UHGV virus genome: UHGV-0349585
From: a virus
Strand: one strand, 5' to 3'
Length of the DNA: 14,578 nucleotides
Part shown: positions 1 through 6,757 of the stretch, piece by piece
How the letters are laid out: every line of letters begins with the position of its first letter
How positions within the stretch are numbered: the first letter of the stretch is position 1
Notes under the pieces: model-generated
The model's input: the letters and a program-made list of their open reading frames with translations, nothing else
The model's database searches: none
Told to the model about the DNA's origin: nothing
Position numbers and translations under genes: made by a program

Positions 1-456
1 TCCAGGCTTTGGCTTTAGCCGCTTCGGTTCATCAGCTCTGATGCCAATCCACGTGGTGTAATTCCCTCGCCCGAAATGGTCATCACAGTATTTGGTGAAG
101 GGAACGAGTTTTAATCTGTCAGTGCAGAACGCGCCGCCGACGTATGGAGTGCCATATTTCTTTACCATATCGATAAATGGCTTCAGAACAGGCATTCGCG
201 TCTGAATATCCTTTGGTTCCCATACCGTATAACCATTTGGCTGTCCAAGCTCCGGGTTGATATCAACCTGCAATACGGTGAGCGGTATATCCCAGAACTT
301 CACAACTTCCCTGACAAACCGATATGTCATTGGATGTTCACAACCTGTATCCATGAAAACGTAATGCACGTCTTTACCTGCCCGTCGCTTTTGCTCCATT
401 AGCCAGAGCAAATATGCTGACGTCCTGCCACCGGAGAAACTAACGACATTTATCAT
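1..456 (-). CDS. NinC-position protein with PP-loop (PAPS-reductase-like) N-terminus; partial, C-terminus beyond window edge
   Basis: Minus-strand ATG at 456-454 overlaps ninB stop (ATGA); my own translation begins MINVVSFSGGRTSAYLL, containing an SGGxxS PP-loop motif; open to position 1. Confidence 0.55.
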   Translation of the reverse strand, partial: MINVVSFSGGRTSAYLLWLMEQKRRAGKDVHYVFMDTGCEHPMTYRFVREVVKFWDIPLTVLQVDINPELGQPNGYTVWEPKDIQTRMPVLKPFIDMVKKYGTPYVGGAFCTDRLKLVPFTKYCDDHFGRGNYTTWIGIRADEPKRLKPKPG

Positions 457-893
457 GCAGCCCTGTCTCCCCATCTCGCTTTCCACTCCAGAGCCAGTCG
501 CGCTTCGTCTGACCACTTAACGCCACGCTCTGTACCGAATGCCTGTATAAGCTCTAATAGCTCCGCAAATTCGCCTACACGCATCCTGCTGGTTGACTGG
601 CCTATTACCACAAAGCCATTCCCGTCAAGGTTAGGAACAACGTCCTGCTGCTTTAATGCTGCGGTAAACACACACTTCCAGCTTTCTGCATCCAGCCAGC
701 GACCATGCCATTCAACCTGACGAGAGACGTCACCAAGGCAAGCCCAAAGCTTTCGATTCTGGTCTAAGCTGCGGTTGCGTTCCTGAATGGTTACTACGAT
801 TGGTTTGGTTGGGTCTGGAAGGATTTGCTGTACTGCGTGAATAGCGTTTTGCTGATGTGCTGGGGATCGAATTTCAAAGGTTAGTTTTTTCAT
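453..893 (-). CDS. ninB: NinB (Orf-family recombination mediator), 146 aa
   Basis: ORF-track protein MKKLTFEIRSPAHQQNAIHAVQQ... matches lambda NinB as I recall it, same length and same position upstream of ninC. Confidence 0.85.
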   Translation of the reverse strand: MKKLTFEIRSPAHQQNAIHAVQQILPDPTKPIVVTIQERNRSLDQNRKLWACLGDVSRQVEWHGRWLDAESWKCVFTAALKQQDVVPNLDGNGFVVIGQSTSRMRVGEFAELLELIQAFGTERGVKWSDEARLALEWKARWGDRAA

Positions 894-1086
894 GACTTCC
901 CTCTCTAACAGATTTCAGGTTATTCCACTCCGTTACCGCACTGCGATAATTCGCGGCCGCCACAACAGCGTGGTTAGCGCAGTAGATTTGGCACCCGTTC
1001 TCCATGTCTAATATTGTCGGTGATTTTCCGCACTTACATTTTTTGGCACGCGGTGCGTCTGAACACATTCCGTTAACGGTGTTCAT
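874..1086 (-). CDS. Small Cys-rich (putative zinc-binding) protein in the ren position
   Basis: 70-aa ORF with CKCG...C..YC pattern; GAGGGG-like RBS upstream of ATG at 1086; overlaps ninB start by 20 nt; not lambda Ren. Confidence 0.4.
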   Translation of the reverse strand: MNTVNGMCSDAPRAKKCKCGKSPTILDMENGCQIYCANHAVVAAANYRSAVTEWNNLKSVREGSHEKTNL

Positions 1087-1111
1087 CAGGATACCCCTCG
1101 TTCTTAATCCA

Positions 1112-1145
1112 ATAAAAAAGGGCTACTGTGTAAATAGCCCCTGTT
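1112..1145 (-). terminator. Intrinsic terminator downstream of the helicase gene (tR2-like position)
   Basis: On minus strand: GGGCTA/TAGCCC stem with 7-9 nt loop followed by a T6 run, between helicase stop (1168) and next gene. Confidence 0.55.
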
Positions 1146-1167
1146 ATTAGCTCAGTGATGTAGATGG

Positions 1168-2544
1168 TCATACGTCCGCCCCTTGTGCATATCGTCTGCC
1201 ACGTGCAGCGGGTGCATTTGATGCTGTGCAAATCTGTCTGGCTTCATCCTGGTCACATGCAACAAAGTGTCCGTTGCAGAACCGCTGGTAAACCGTACCA
1301 AGCGAGCCAAAACGGTTTTTCGTCACGATGATTTCAGCAAATGGCGCGGCGCTACTGTTCTCGTCATATACAGCTTCCCGATAGAGCATGATGATTGAGT
1401 CTGCGTCCTGTTCAATGCTTCCTGAATCACGCAAATCTGCGTTTGTCGGGCGTTTGTTTGGTCGCTTCTCAACATCGCGTGAAAGCTGACTCAGGGAGAT
1501 AACAGGCGTTTTCAGGTCTTTCGCCATCGCCTTCAGGCTTCCGGAGATGTGAGCAATTGCGAGGTCGTTGCGATCTGCTTTCGGCTTCTCAATCAGGCCA
1601 AGATAATCCGCCATGATGAGTGACAGGTTGGGATTTTCCTGTTTGTGCCGCTCTGCGATTGAGCGAATTTCTTCTACCGATAACCGCGAGGCATCGACTA
1701 CCCATACATCCAAATCTGCAAGCTGACTCATGCCGTTAGCAACACGCGCCCAGCCTTCGTCATCCATCGATGCAGGATTTCGCAGTACGCTAACCGACAT
1801 CCTCCCGGCGTTGGCAATGCTTCGCTCTGCAATCTGCAATGCGCTCATTTCCATTGAGAAAATCAATACCCCGCGCCGGACGTCAGAACCAGGGATAACG
1901 CGGCTTGCAACGCCTTCGGCAATCTTCAGCGCCAGCTCGGTTTTCCCCATACCAGGACGAGCAGCGATTATCACAAGGTCTTCCGCGTTCATCCCTCCGG
2001 TGATAGCGTCAAGTTCTTCGATTCCGGTCTTCAGGGTATCTGACTCTTCTCCGTTCCTCAGACGCCTGTCAAGCGTGTCAGTGTAGTCAGTGATGATTTC
2101 CCCTAACCGTACAGGTTTAACCTCGTCACGGGGCTTTCTGATGGCTGAAAGACGCTTTACAAGTTCATCCATCGCCTGACTCGATGCGTCGATGGTTCCG
2201 CTCTGAATTGGTTCACGCATTTCATCCATGATTTCCAGCACCAGACGGCGGTGATAGTTATCCGCGACCATTCCGGCATATCCCTTCAGGTTTGCGGCAC
2301 TCGGGCAGTTTTTGCTGGTCATCAGGATTGACGTGAAATGCTCCTCTCCGCACGCCTCGGCAACCATCAGCGCGTCGATTAGGTTTCTGTTTCTCGCCTG
2401 CTTGCGGATAACCTCGAAGGCTTTCCGGTAGAGCGGAATTGAAAACGCTTCCGGCTCCAGCGTTGCCAGAACGTCACTGGCAGTTGGTGTTAATCCACCA
2501 ATCAGCAAGCCACCGATAACGCTCGCTTCGATATCCTGTTTCAT
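1168..2544 (-). CDS. Replicative DNA helicase, DnaB family (phage-encoded, P22 gene 12-like rather than lambda P)
   Basis: 458 aa; Walker A ARPGMGKT; DnaB-like N-terminal and RecA-like C-terminal layout; start overlaps O-like stop (ATGA at 2541-2544). Confidence 0.85.
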
Positions 2545-3371
2545 GCAATCCCCCTGTCTGCAAACTTCCCTTCCCGTACTCCCGTTAACGAATCTTCCCT
2601 CAGCAGGTAATCAAAATCTGCCGTCCAGCCCGTGTCGTTGTCTCCGAAGTAAAACGGCTTGGCCTGATGCACAAACGCCCTGACATACGCTCTGAAACCG
2701 TCCACGTTTGGCGTTTTCAGTTGCGGGATGATTTTCTTCAGGCGGCGTTTGCGTTTCTCGTTGACCGCAACAGCATGTGGAAGTCTGTCACCGACTTCGG
2801 TGTTGTAGGCGTTCAGGAAGGATTCGTAGTCGATTCGTTCTGCCTTGCGACGTTCAGGTTTAACCTGCCCATCGCCGCCCCCGTTAGGGGGTAAGGGGGT
2901 ATTTGTATTTATTGTCTTTTGTATATTGTCTTTTGTGTTTGACTGATTCGGTAAATTGCTTTTTACCGATTTGGTGAAGGTTTGTTTTACCGAATTGGTA
3001 AATGTTTTACCGAATCCGTTAACTTTCGTTTTCCACTCGGAAATGTTTGTATTCATACCAACTTGACGCCCCACCTGAATGAGAACTCCCATTCTGATAA
3101 GCTCGTTTTTGGCGGTAGAGCATTTGGTTGGTGCCATGCCAGTGAGTTCAGCGAACTGTTCGTTTCCGATCCAATCTATTTTTTTGTTGTAACCGTATGT
3201 CTTGCGCCACACAGCCATAACAATCAGTAACTGATGTAGAGTAAGTCCAGAAAGCATGGCGGCTTCTAACAGTGTGTTTGCAGTCCGAGTGTAGCCATCT
3301 TCGAGTTCTGCCACGCGATGCTCCACGACCTCCAGTTGAGGCCTGTAATCAGCTAACTTAACGACGCCCAT
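2541..3371 (-). CDS. Replication initiation protein, lambda O N-terminal-domain family, with iteron-encoded repeat segment
   Basis: 276 aa; [22 protein letters not shown] motif typical of phage O-like initiators; internal repeats [16 protein letters not shown] coincide with DNA iterons; AGGAG RBS before ATG at 3371. Confidence 0.8.
2898..3025. repeat. Origin of replication: iterons plus adjacent AT-rich tract inside the O-like gene
   Basis: TTTTACCGAAT core as three direct copies (about 2961, 2986, 3005) plus one inverted copy (2946-2955); AT-rich tract 2898-2940 with TGTCTTTTGT repeated. Confidence 0.65.
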
Positions 3372-3519
3372 GTTTCACTCCTGCTTTGGCTAGTCTGTAA
3401 ACACCAACAAGGCGCTCTGCGAACGCCCTGTTATTTGCTGCGGCTACCACTAATCCCTCAGGTGAATCAGGGTGTCGAATCTCTTCTTTTTCCTGGTATT
3501 TCTTACGACGTTTTGTCAT
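3358..3519 (-). CDS. Small basic hypothetical protein (53 aa) between cII and the O-like gene
   Basis: My own translation [53 protein letters not shown]; AGGAG RBS 6 nt upstream of ATG at 3519; not in the ORF track (<60 aa). Confidence 0.3.
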   Translation of the reverse strand: MTKRRKKYQEKEEIRHPDSPEGLVVAAANNRAFAERLVGVYRLAKAGVKHGRR

Positions 3520-3553
3520 AATTACTCCTGTGGATTGATCCAGTCTTTCTACA

Positions 3554-3832
3554 TCAGGCCTCGAAGAATTCGCCGTTCTTCGGGGCTTTTTCTTTTGTCA
3601 GCATTCTGGCTACTTTCTTAGCCAGTTCCGCCAACTCCTCGTCTTCAACACCCCATTCAAGAACAGCCAGAAGCATTCCCATTTTTGGGATGAAGCTGTC
3701 TTTCCATCGCGAAATTTGCGATTCATTAATCCCTAACGCGTCGGCAACCTTTCGCTGACCACGTACAGCAATTCGATTCAGGATGTTGCTTGTAATTGCA
3801 TTCGCTTTCTTGCGAGTACTTGTAAGTTGCAT
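3554..3832 (-). CDS. cII: CII-like transcriptional activator (92 aa), diverged from lambda CII
   Basis: Conserved core ALGINESQISRWK...FIPKMGMLLAVLEWGV resembles lambda CII; ATG at 3832 preceded by the lambda-like leader CTAAGGAAATACTTACAT; ORF-track frame extends further upstream but this start has the RBS. Confidence 0.75.
   Translation of the reverse strand: MQLTSTRKKANAITSNILNRIAVRGQRKVADALGINESQISRWKDSFIPKMGMLLAVLEWGVEDEELAELAKKVARMLTKEKAPKNGEFFEA
3557..3596 (+). terminator. Strong intrinsic terminator on the strand antisense to cII, overlapping the cII 3' end (oop-RNA-like arrangement)
   Basis: About 11-bp stem GGCCTCGAAGAA/TTCTTCGGGGC with 7-nt loop, followed directly by TTTTTCTTTT on the plus strand. 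Confidence 0.55.
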
Positions 3833-3859
3833 ATGTAAGTATTTCCTTAGATAACAATT

Positions 3860-3900
3860 GATTGAATGTATGCAAATAAATGCATACACCATAGGTGTGG
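3860..3900 (-). terminator. tR1 region hairpin between nutR and cII
   Basis: Perfect 8-bp inverted repeat TGTATGCA/TGCATACA (3867-3888) plus adjacent CACC..GGTG palindrome; matches lambda tR1 region as I recall it. Confidence 0.5.
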
Positions 3901-3911
3901 TTTAATTTGAT

Positions 3912-3943
3912 GCCCTTTTTCAGGGCTGGAATGTGTAAGAGCG
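3912..3943 (-). promoter_or_regulatory. nutR (boxA and boxB)
   Basis: On minus strand: boxA CGCTCTTA (3943-3936) then boxB hairpin GCCCTGAAAAAGGGC (3926-3912), just after cro. Confidence 0.8.
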
Positions 3944-3950
3944 GGGTTAT

Positions 3951-4160
<210 letters not shown>

Positions 4161-4177
4161 TTAGTACATGCAACTAT

Positions 4178-4247
4178 TATCACCGCTAGAGGTAAAATAG
4201 TCAACACGCACGGTGTTAGATATTTATCCCTCGCGGTGATAGATTTA
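4178..4247. promoter_or_regulatory. OR1-OR2-OR3 operators with divergent pR (toward cro) and pRM (toward cI)
   Basis: 17-bp operators at 4178-4194 (OR1), 4202-4218 (OR2), 4225-4241 (OR3); pR -35 and -10 as AGTCAA and ATTATC on the plus strand; pRM -35 TAGATA (4217-4222) and -10 GATTTA (4242-4247); cI ATG at 4252 is leaderless. Confidence 0.85.
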
Positions 4248-4248
4248 A

Positions 4249-4965
<717 letters not shown>

Positions 4966-5264
4966 AGAGGATAGATGGAGTTTAATGGCCATGAGTATCA
5001 AGCGGTCAAAAAGAAGCTCATCTATTCATTGAAAGCATAAGGCCATCTGAGTATATCCGTAATGATCTGGATATTGTCTATAACATCAATGACCGGACGA
5101 TAGATATCGGTGAGCAGCGTCCTGTATGGCAGGGTGAGGCAGGTGAAAAAACGTCCTGCCATCAACAAGAATCAAGTGCATCCGCTCTCTGGACAGATGG
5201 AAAATTTATTGGATGCAAAAAGATATGAAATAACACCTGTATAGCACGGAGCTTTCTCTGACCG

Positions 5265-5660
5265 ATGCACTTGAAGTTGTTAGGGCTGACCCAGCCTGCT
5301 GTTTCTTTAGAGCTTGCCGAGCGATACATCAACGCAACTGAGCCGAAGCCTAGCGACAGCAGCATTACTGCATATAAAAGCCGCATGGAAAGTGCAATCA
5401 AAAAGTTTGTAGCTTTCCAGTCTGGTGAAGAAATCCCATACACTCCGATTGACAAAGAATCCAGTGAGGAAAAAGATTTGACTGGCGAACCAACAAAAGT
5501 CGAAGGCAAGGCTAATGCACTTCATACCTATGATCTTCCAGTAGTTCTTCGACCTGAATCAGGGGTTACAGTAACGATTAAAGGCATTCCTAACGATATC
5601 ACAAACGAAGAAGCCGAACGCATCTCTTCAATTCTGAAGGTTTACGTTCGGCCTCAATAA
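5265..5660 (+). CDS. Hypothetical protein (131 aa) in the slot occupied by rexA/rexB in lambda
   Basis: Longest ORF between cI and the timm-like terminator, co-oriented with cI; acidic and Lys-rich composition; weak RBS; two antisense ORFs overlap it, so coding status is uncertain. Confidence 0.35.
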   Translation: MHLKLLGLTQPAVSLELAERYINATEPKPSDSSITAYKSRMESAIKKFVAFQSGEEIPYTPIDKESSEEKDLTGEPTKVEGKANALHTYDLPVVLRPESGVTVTIKGIPNDITNEEAERISSILKVYVRPQ

Positions 5661-5833
5661 TGCAAAAGCATTCAGCACAATGTCCAACTCCCCAGTCCGA
5701 CATTGATGCTGTTTAACCAGAGCCTCCAAAAGGAGCCCTTGTTAAGGTACACAATATTTGCGATGTAACCTTAGCGCGTCTGGTACATTTTTTCAAGCGG
5801 TTGTAGGGCTGCCGCCAATATGAGAAAACACAG

Positions 5834-5956
5834 ATGTCTACATACAATTTGAATGACCAATTCGATCGAGAAGTTCATGTGAATGCCTATGAACGGATAA
5901 GGCATGGAAATCTTGAACATGTGTGTGAGCATTATCGCTCAAGGCCACACCGCTAA
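5834..5956 (+). CDS. Small hypothetical ORF (40 aa) immediately upstream of the timm-like terminator
   Basis: My own translation MSTYNLNDQFDREVHVNAYERIRHGNLEHVCEHYRSRPHR; weak GAGA-type RBS; ends 5 nt before the terminator stem. Confidence 0.2.
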   Translation: MSTYNLNDQFDREVHVNAYERIRHGNLEHVCEHYRSRPHR

Positions 5957-5961
5957 TCATC

Positions 5962-5990
5962 AACCCGGCCTCCATGCCGGGTTTTCTTTT
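5962..5990 (+). terminator. Intrinsic terminator ending the cI operon (timm-like)
   Basis: CCCGGC/GCCGGG stem (5964-5981) with 6-nt loop followed by TTTTCTTTT. Confidence 0.6.
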
Positions 5991-6140
5991 CCTCTCGCCC
6001 CAAAAAAAACGCATAACCAATTGTATTTATTTCAAAATTAATAGATACAACTCACTAAACATCGCAATTCAGATCTCTCGATCACCTTCCCAATCCACAC
6101 AACCCTGCAAAAAATAAATCTATATAAAAAACATACAGAT

Positions 6141-6203
6141 AACCATCTGCGGTGATAAATTATCTCTGGCGGTGTTGACATAAATACCACTGGCGGTGAT
6201 ACT
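6141..6203 (+). promoter_or_regulatory. OL3-OL2-OL1 operators and pL promoter
   Basis: 17-bp operators at 6141-6157, 6161-6177, 6185-6201; -35 TTGACA (6175-6180); -10 GATACT (6198-6203). Confidence 0.9.
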
Positions 6204-6242
6204 AAGCACATCAGCAGGACGCACTGACCACCATGAAGGTGA

Positions 6243-6273
6243 CGCTCTTAAAAATTAAGCCCTGAAGAAGGGC
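6243..6273 (+). promoter_or_regulatory. nutL (boxA and boxB)
   Basis: boxA CGCTCTTA (6243-6250); boxB hairpin GCCCTGAAGAAGGGC (6259-6273). Confidence 0.85.
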
Positions 6274-6430
6274 AGCATTCAAAGCAGAAGGCTTTGGTGT
6301 GTGTGATACGAAACGAAGCATTGGCCGGAAGTGCGAATCCGGATTAGCTGCCAATGTGCCATTGCGGGGTGTTTTCGTTCAGGACTACGACTCCCACACA
6401 CAACCAAAGCTAACTGACAGGAGAATCCAG

Positions 6431-6757
6431 ATGGATGCACAAACACGCCGCCGCGAACGTCGCGCAGAGAAACAGGCTCAATGGAAAGCAGCAAATCCCC
6501 TGTTGGTTGGGGTAAGCGCAAAACCAGTTAACCGCCCTATTCTCTCGCTGAATCGCAAACCGAAATCACGAGTAGAAAGCGCACTGAATCCGATAGACCT
6601 TACAGTGCTGGCTGAATACCACGAACAGATTGAAAGCAACCTGCAACGTATTGAGCGCAAGAATCAGCGCACATGGTACAGCAAGCCACGCAGTGAAATG
6701 GGTGTGACTTGTGTTGGTCGCCAGAAAATGAAATTAGGCAGCAAACCACTTATTTGA
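6431..6757 (+). CDS. N: N antitermination protein (108 aa), lambda-like with a divergent C-terminus
   Basis: MDAQTRRRERRAEKQAQWKAANPLLVGVSAKPVNRPILSLNRKPK... with Arg-rich N-terminal motif; AGGAG RBS before ATG at 6431; ORF-track frame 6299-6757 is an upstream extension into the leader. Confidence 0.9.
   Translation: MDAQTRRRERRAEKQAQWKAANPLLVGVSAKPVNRPILSLNRKPKSRVESALNPIDLTVLAEYHEQIESNLQRIERKNQRTWYSKPRSEMGVTCVGRQKMKLGSKPLI

Follow-up and report, generated by a model that had tools for sequence, protein, structure and literature searches.

A lambda-type leader joined to a P22 C1-type cII allele at a short shared block: an inherited mosaic joint in a lambdoid phage genome

The stretch of DNA analysed here in its full length of 14,578 nucleotides, which we call the window, comes from the UHGV virus genome UHGV-0349585 and, by gene order and strands, reads as the conventional lambda map reverse-complemented. 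Pfam assigns CII, Cro, CI, replication protein O, a DnaB-type helicase, NinB and N, and the genes follow one another in the order cI, cro, cII, a gp53-like ORF, O and helicase, with cII lying between cro/nutR/tR1 on one side and the replication genes on the other. The features on which the following argument is built are these:

453..893, minus strand: ninB (ORF list and Pfam)
1168..2544, minus strand: DnaB-type replicative helicase at the position of lambda P (Pfam DnaB_C, E = 9.5e-78)
2541..3371, minus strand: O-family replication initiator, a non-lambda allele of the Sf6/HK97 type (Pfam Phage_rep_O, E = 4.2e-36)
3358..3519, minus strand: 53-aa ORF, homologous to HK97 gp53 and Sf6 gene 42 (neighbouring annotations in Sf6, mEpX2 and HK633)
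3554..3832, minus strand: cII, 92 aa, allele of the P22-C1/HK97/Sf6 type, called W
3867..3888, minus strand: palindrome of the tR1 region, TGTATGCATTTATTTGCATACA, identical to lambda (direct sequence reading, within the 345-bp identity run described below)
3912..3943, minus strand: nutR (in-register mapping of the HK542 and lambda annotations)
3912..3926, minus strand: nutR boxB, GCCCTGAAAAAGGGC (mapped from the HK542 and lambda annotations)
3936..3943, minus strand: nutR boxA, CGCTCTTA (mapped from the HK542 and lambda annotations)
3951..4151, minus strand: cro, 100% identical to lambda cro with 0 mismatches (Pfam Cro PF09048, E = 5.9e-35)
4204..4176, minus strand: pR, found by scan, from which cII is transcribed
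4252..4965, plus strand: cI repressor of the lambda immunity type (Pfam and lambda alignment)

A Pfam search with the 53-aa ORF (3358..3519) gave no match, and an Rfam scan of the whole window at gathering thresholds returned nothing, leaving nutR and the oop-like element described below without a curated RNA family.

The cII product matches the Pfam family Phage_CII (PF05269) over positions 1-91 of 91 with E = 1.8e-42 and 143.9 bits (cut-off 21.3). Its identity to P22 C1 across the full 92 residues is 86%; with lambda CII it agrees at 45 of 85 residues (53%), and both Pfam and the protein alignment identify lambda CII and the window CII as true homologues. In DNA, the gene is at least 99% identical to its counterparts in HK542, Sf6 and mEpX2 and ∼80% identical to P22 c1. 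An earlier reading made from the letters alone (the sequence-only reading) had described the product as a diverged CII-like protein; judged by these matches, it is recognizable as the well-known P22 C1/HK97-Sf6 type of allele and not as a lambda cII that has diverged in some unusual way. An in-frame ATG at 3892 on the minus strand opens a 112-aa ORF (3554..3892) that runs through tR1 and the leader, and extended CII genes are annotated in N7 (366-nt CDS) and HF4s (384-nt CDS). We rejected 3892 as the real cII start; homology to lambda, P22 and HK542 fixes it at 3832.

Compared with lambda by BLASTN, the window falls into the following segments:

1..905: lambda-like, including ninB/ninC, 98.7%
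906..3829: no significant lambda DNA similarity except two short islands
within cII (first island): a 48-nt conserved core, 81% identical to lambda
3830..4961: lambda-like immunity block, 98.1%
5962..6732: lambda-like, pL to N, 92%

Neither the O-family initiator nor the DnaB-type helicase has DNA similarity to lambda in this comparison, in keeping with the earlier claim that the genes downstream of cII are non-lambda. The second island (1140..1171) is 32 nt long and 97% identical to lambda 40567..40598, at the end of ren and before ninB; it sits at the helicase stop codon, between the non-lambda replication genes and the lambda-like nin genes, and is probably another boundary block.

The immunity block aligns to lambda (J02459) without gaps, lambda 37231..38362 corresponding to window 4961..3830 over 1132 bp with 21 mismatches (98.1%), and this local alignment terminates precisely at the G of the cII ATG (A at 3832, G at 3830). 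All 21 mismatches are within 4175..4961. The 345 bp from 4174 to 3830, which hold cro, boxA and boxB of nutR, the tR1 palindrome, the cII leader and the ATG, are 100% identical to lambda, so that the lambda-like character attributed by the sequence-only reading to nutR, tR1 and the leader up to and including the ATG holds without exception; the string that it quoted, CTAAGGAAATACTTACATATG, lies on the minus strand at 3850..3830. The first base past the ATG is already a mismatch, the next 167 nt have an identity of 0.52, and the alignment of the entire cII gene to lambda reaches a DNA identity of 0.57. A two-rate change-point fit against lambda locates the switch at 3829 (support interval 3831..3829) and gains 211 in twice the log-likelihood relative to no change, which excludes a gradient. 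The identity drop is abrupt, not gradual, and a CII-like protein that differs from lambda CII does begin straight after the ATG, as had been proposed.

The region upstream of the joint is of the lambda immunity type: its CI, its Cro and its OR operators hardly depart from those of lambda. CI differs from lambda CI by 3 substitutions in 237 residues (T3A, K71N and G125V) and Cro by none; single-base differences from lambda fall in OR3 (4232), in OR1 (4187) and just past the pR -10 (4175), and those at 4187 and 4175 are also found in HK542. Divergence from lambda is uneven within 3830..4961, amounting to 2.7% in 4175..4961, mostly at third-codon positions of cI, and to 0 in 3830..4174. If mismatches were spread evenly, the chance of such unevenness would be about 5e-4, that is, (787/1132)^21. 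A further, more recent exchange boundary near OR/pR is suggested. Similarity to lambda ends at 4961, four bases before the end of cI, and rexA and rexB are absent downstream of cI. Instead, window 4940..6000 is 99.9% identical to the cI-adjacent segment of VT2-Sakai, Nil2, Stx1-converting and other Stx phages; ∼1 kb takes the place of rexA/rexB, and the Stx phages carry ∼328 bp more there. This Stx-type segment includes a 131-aa ORF (5265..5660, plus strand) with no match in Pfam.

Comparison with relatives other than lambda puts the step at the ATG into a different light. It defines a short block that the window has in common with both kinds of relatives and that overlaps the elements of the promoter pRE, which reads toward cI:

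3830..3849, minus strand: shared 20-nt block, TAAGGAAATACTTACATATG (match edges in relatives and direct sequence reading)
3837..3842, plus strand: -10 hexamer of pRE, AAGTAT, inside the shared block (in register from the HK542 annotation, identical to lambda)
3810..3823, plus strand: putative CII/C1 binding site, TTGCGAGTACTTGT, spanning the pRE -35, inside cII codons 4-8 (pattern match)

For phages that combine the lambda-type leader with a lambda-type cII (lambda, SfI, HK633, Louie, 434 and others), the match to the window ends at 3830, whereas for those that carry allele W behind another leader (mEpX2, N7, IME10, HK630 and several Stx phages), the match starts at 3849. Against lambda and HK633, the abrupt change of identity is at 3829/3830; for mEpX2, HK630 and Gally, it is at 3849/3850, and change-point fits against the W phages with the other leader give 3849..3848. 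All that Gally and HF4s have in common with the window are the 20-mer and the 48-nt cII core. On the minus strand, the block contains the cII Shine-Dalgarno sequence (AAGGA) and ATG, and on the plus strand it contains the -10 and the start region of pRE, a CII-dependent promoter; its right edge is the G of the ATG and its left edge lies 17 nt upstream of the A, which places the junction at a gene boundary. It is identical in leader types A and B, which elsewhere have 27% ungapped identity, and before both cII alleles, which have 52% identity after it.

Because both parental lineages possess 3830..3849, the ATG marks only the right-hand edge of the possible crossover zone. To judge from these alignments, the crossover must lie within 3830..3849, and an exchange at any point of the block gives the same product. 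The earlier placement of a recombination junction at the start codon therefore stands as far as the step at the gene boundary is concerned, which is real, but the crossover cannot be fixed to the ATG, only to the 20-nt block.

The block also divides pRE in two. Between the -35 spanned by the predicted CII site TTGCGAGTACTTGT and the -10 hexamer AAGTAT lies a 17-bp spacer, and the joint would fall in this spacer. The homologous positions are annotated as a CII site in HK542 (EF120458) and as a C1 site in P22 (BK000583). Over the whole window, TTGC-N6-TTGY occurs 3 times where 2.4 occurrences would be expected; as this count shows no enrichment over chance, what argues for TTGCGAGTACTTGT is its position together with the homologous annotation. 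A second, perfect TTGC-N6-TTGC, TTGCTTGTAATTGC, is found at 3786..3799 on the plus strand, inside cII and 24 bp upstream of the -35 site, and the records differ as to which of the two is the CII site: TTGCTTGTAATTGC is annotated in mEpX2 and HK630, the -35-positioned site in HK542 and P22. No CII site of the pI type is found within the window. Drawing on the sequence and on established lambda and P22 biology, we infer a functional rationale for the joint. The shared block would supply the -10, the Shine-Dalgarno sequence and the ATG, and each cII allele would bring its own activator site (TTGC-N6-TTGY at the -35) in its first codons. With the activator site embedded in the codons of its own cII, activator and site would move together, and the recombinant product would work because the joint lies in the pRE spacer.

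The joint is not peculiar to the window. Leader A followed by cII W, at an identity of at least 99%, is present in the independently sequenced phages HK542, HK544, HK244, Sf6, HK446 and Bas106, and the same arrangement is found in CL707 and Huey; in Sf6, HK446, Huey and Bas106, which have other repressors, the match begins at 3945, right after the cro stop. A survey of 5,426 complete E. coli genomes with a 121-nt probe across the joint found matches in 1,049, with the joint itself spanned in 112. In 40 evenly spaced E. coli records, 4 matches covered the full probe and 1 more spanned the joint, 11 began exactly at 3849, 23 ended exactly at 3830 and 1 ended at 3835. Since published phages and many prophages carry the joint, it is not an event of this genome; it was inherited and not made here. 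The same distribution bears on whether the window could be a chimera of assembly or sequencing. Nothing specific points that way; what can be set down in its favour is that a counterpart covering at least 80% of the window was found neither among phage records (best 48%) nor among complete E. coli genomes (best 59%). The window is a mosaic combination of its own. Against a chimera stand the identical joint and its flanks at 99% or more in the six independently sequenced phages named above and in the 112 complete E. coli genomes, and these occurrences exclude it.

Two leader classes and two cII classes can be told apart around the block, that is, leader A (lambda-type) and leader B (HK620/mEpX2-type, with the ungapped identity of 27% to A given above), and cII of the lambda type and of type W. 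All four combinations occur in named phages:

leader A with lambda-type cII: lambda, HK633
leader A with cII W: the window, Sf6, HK542
leader B with cII W: mEpX2, HK630, N7
leader B with lambda-type cII: Gally, HF4s

A scan of IMG/VR that required an exact match to the 20-mer gave at least 120 stretches, 116 of which were listed with full flanks. Among these 116 contigs, A with lambda-type cII was found 51 times, A with W 14 times, B with lambda-type cII 16 times and B with W 35 times, counts that refer to the matches listed and to an exact block and are not population frequencies. Each side fell into its two classes, and no intermediates or alternative joints were seen among the 116 listed contigs. 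Leader type and cII allele are associated in this set (odds ratio ∼8), which is not a random sample. One and the same leader haplotype can be found in front of either cII allele, and identical cII haplotypes likewise stand behind both leaders. We do not take this haplotype sharing to prove that crossovers in the block recurred, because phages with the same leader can recombine anywhere in the common leader of at least 135 bp and end up with an unchanged joint.

The four combinations do decide against a history without recombination, in which leader and cII would have descended together, the leader being frozen by purifying selection while the cII coding sequence diverged fast. Such a history would accord with the density of regulatory signals in the leader (nutR, tR1 and pRE) and with the true homology of lambda CII and the window CII. 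Yet it would have to account for 345 bp of perfect identity giving way to ∼52% within one base, and for the presence of W at 99% on an unrelated leader (27% ungapped identity) that carries lambda-type cII as well. With all four combinations of leader and cII in existence, a single tree, or co-divergence without recombination, is ruled out, and we regard this explanation as wildly improbable.

The exchanged unit seems to have a second defined end. Two further features lie at the other side of cII:

3512..3544, minus strand: downstream boundary block, ACTGGATCAATCCACAGGAGTAATTATGACAAA (match of 32/33 to the Sf6 feature annotated 'bsq5; boundary sequence')
3556..3597, plus strand: oop-like intrinsic terminator, a 14-bp stem followed by a T-run, antisense to the cII 3' end (terminator scan)

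The block ACTGGATCAATCCACAGGAGTAATTATGACAAA holds the Shine-Dalgarno sequence and ATG of the next gene and, on the opposite strand, CATAAT (3517..3522), the putative -10 of an oop-type antisense RNA if lambda pO and the annotated P22 record are taken as a guide. The terminator has a predicted folding energy of -27.9 kcal/mol (z = -5.6), and an oop terminator is annotated at the homologous place in P22. The block at 3512..3544 matches lambda at 30 of 33 positions. In lambda itself, the last ∼55-63 nt of cII (lambda 38591..38653, the oop region) form a short conserved block that overlaps the oop RNA; only this 3' block of lambda cII is common to phage 21, Stx phages and Salmonella P22-like phages (91-100% identity), in which cII is otherwise different.

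The similarity of HK630 and P22 to the window ends at 3510, and HK633 matches the window perfectly over 3945..3830, departs from it throughout the cII reading frame and regains identity between ∼3540 and 3341. Since only the cII frame is swapped relative to HK633, the exchange of cII and the replacement of the replication genes are separable, and with a second block after the cII stop closing the cassette, cII alone can be swapped. On these alignments, cII appears to be a two-allele cassette bounded downstream by the second conserved block. Another recurrent breakpoint lies at 3341, in the 5' end of the O gene, where the matches of HK542, Sf6, mEpX2, Huey and IME10 end; P22 gene 18 gives a match of its own, at 91%, over 3341..3201, and the joint at 3341 lies inside a gene and not at a boundary. 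A further joint is found within cII itself. In mEp213 (714..992), cII is chimeric, lambda-type for the first ∼170 nt and W-type after that, and its internal joint (∼window 3660) lies in the conserved core ATGCT.CT.GCTGTTCTTGAATGGGG, where the two alleles are nearly identical. As this joint is in a place of high local identity, joints form where identity exists and not only at gene ends. Joints at places of local identity favour homology-guided exchange.

How such joints arise has been framed by two models of module boundaries, namely, homologous recombination at short conserved boundary sequences and illegitimate recombination combined with selection (PMC3233612). We think it likely that the window carries an inherited joint of two exchangeable lambdoid modules, leader A and cII W, produced by a homology-guided crossover in the block. 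This crossover would have occurred inside the 20 nt between co-resident lambdoid genomes, through host RecA or a phage single-strand-annealing recombinase, and later spread would have used longer flanking homologies. As experiments have shown, lambdoid mosaics result mainly from relaxed homologous recombination, with Rad52-like phage recombinases preponderant on diverged sequences (PMC3945230), and the exact and recurrent block edges, the lack of alternative joints and the mEp213 chimera favour the homology model as far as alignments can speak to it. What counts against this model is length. Efficient pairing is quoted as needing at least 23-27 bp with Red-beta and 31-34 bp with RecA (PMC3945230); the block, with its 20 nt, is shorter, so that crossovers inside it would be inefficient. 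Further caveats are that the IMG/VR census was conditioned on an exact block match and that, after one A+W phage had arisen, reassortment could run through the extended leader identity or through the genes downstream.

Illegitimate recombination would have struck at more or less random positions, with selection keeping those products whose genes and signals were intact, and the identity of the block would then reflect functional constraint and not a guide to the exchange. This model is established for phage mosaicism without boundary homology (PMC3233612), it is at ease with a block below the measured minimal pairing segments (PMC3945230), and the content of the block is plainly functional on both strands according to the HK542 and P22 annotations. 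It fits poorly, however, with two block edges that are both met exactly and repeatedly in hundreds of genomes and with the lack of intermediates or alternative joints among the 116 listed contigs, and in mEp213, too, the joint of the chimeric cII falls where local identity is high. Constraint alone does not predict 20/20 identity either, given that P22, whose version before the ATG matches 13/20 block positions, works with it. Experiments, moreover, favour homologous over illegitimate exchange in lambdoid phages (PMC3945230). Taking these points together, we hold an illegitimate origin of the joint to be rather unlikely. Under the homology-guided crossover that we prefer, the blocks would stay identical because they are constrained on both strands, and this identity would then offer a substrate for recombination.

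One may go further and speculate that both blocks are selectively maintained linkers, that cII is a balanced two-allele cassette and that the association of leader and cII reflects functional coupling and not just ancestry. We regard this extension as unlikely; if it were true, the locus would allow the linker model of phage mosaicism to be weighed quantitatively, in nature, against the model of illegitimate recombination. The value of the locus as it stands is didactic: both edges of the 20-nt block can be read to the base, the four combinations are abundant, and the joint would split pRE in such a way that each activator stays with its own site. Annotators are warned by it that the cII allele cannot be predicted from a 'lambda-like' leader.

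Textbooks have covered mosaic joints between the genes of lambdoid phages for decades, and boundary sequences are an old and established concept. Degnan, Michalowski, Babic, Cordes & Little (2007, Mol Microbiol 64:232) reportedly found a conserved lambda immunity region to be flanked by differing N and CII alleles, the joints showing microhomologies. The joint analysed here is itself already known, in that it sits in the annotated GenBank records of HK542, HK544 and Sf6. The sequence-only reading was thus right to see in it a clean example of modular exchange at gene boundaries, but one that is inherited and is already on record. A 2022 paper on co-transfer in lambdoid phages mentions neither cII nor breakpoints. 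The concept of the 'boundary sequence' (bsq) is used for HK620 and Sf6 (AF547987 annotation), and in the Sf6 record the 20-mer at the cII ATG bears no boundary-sequence annotation; the 20-mer as a boundary block may be one small point that is not explicit in the records.

Among known systems, the wild lambda-immunity coliphages HK542, HK544, HK244 and CL707 (EF120455-EF120459, JQ086373/4; Degnan et al. 2007) have the same leader-cII joint at the same base, with 99.6% (HK542) and 98.8% (HK544) identity over window 3341..4300, and the records of the HK542 group annotate pRE, the CII site and nutR. The window differs from this group in that (i) its cI has more synonymous differences and (ii) 4962..5961 is of the Stx-phage type and not of the HK542 type. 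Sf6 (AF547987, region of genes 40-43) has the segment from nutR through tR1, leader and cII to gene 42 at 99.3% over 3341..3945 but a 434-type repressor and cro. P22 c1 (BK000583) is likewise 92 aa long, has its C1 site (TTGC-N6-TTGT) in the same codons and carries an oop-type terminator at the 3' end of the gene, whereas its leader is unrelated, its DNA is ∼80% identical and its block before the ATG has diverged. Lambda (J02459) has the same gene order and a CII site likewise embedded in the first cII codons; the window cII, in contrast, has 57% DNA identity and, over 85 residues, 53% protein identity to that of lambda and falls 5 codons short of it, and the replication genes of the two are unrelated in DNA.
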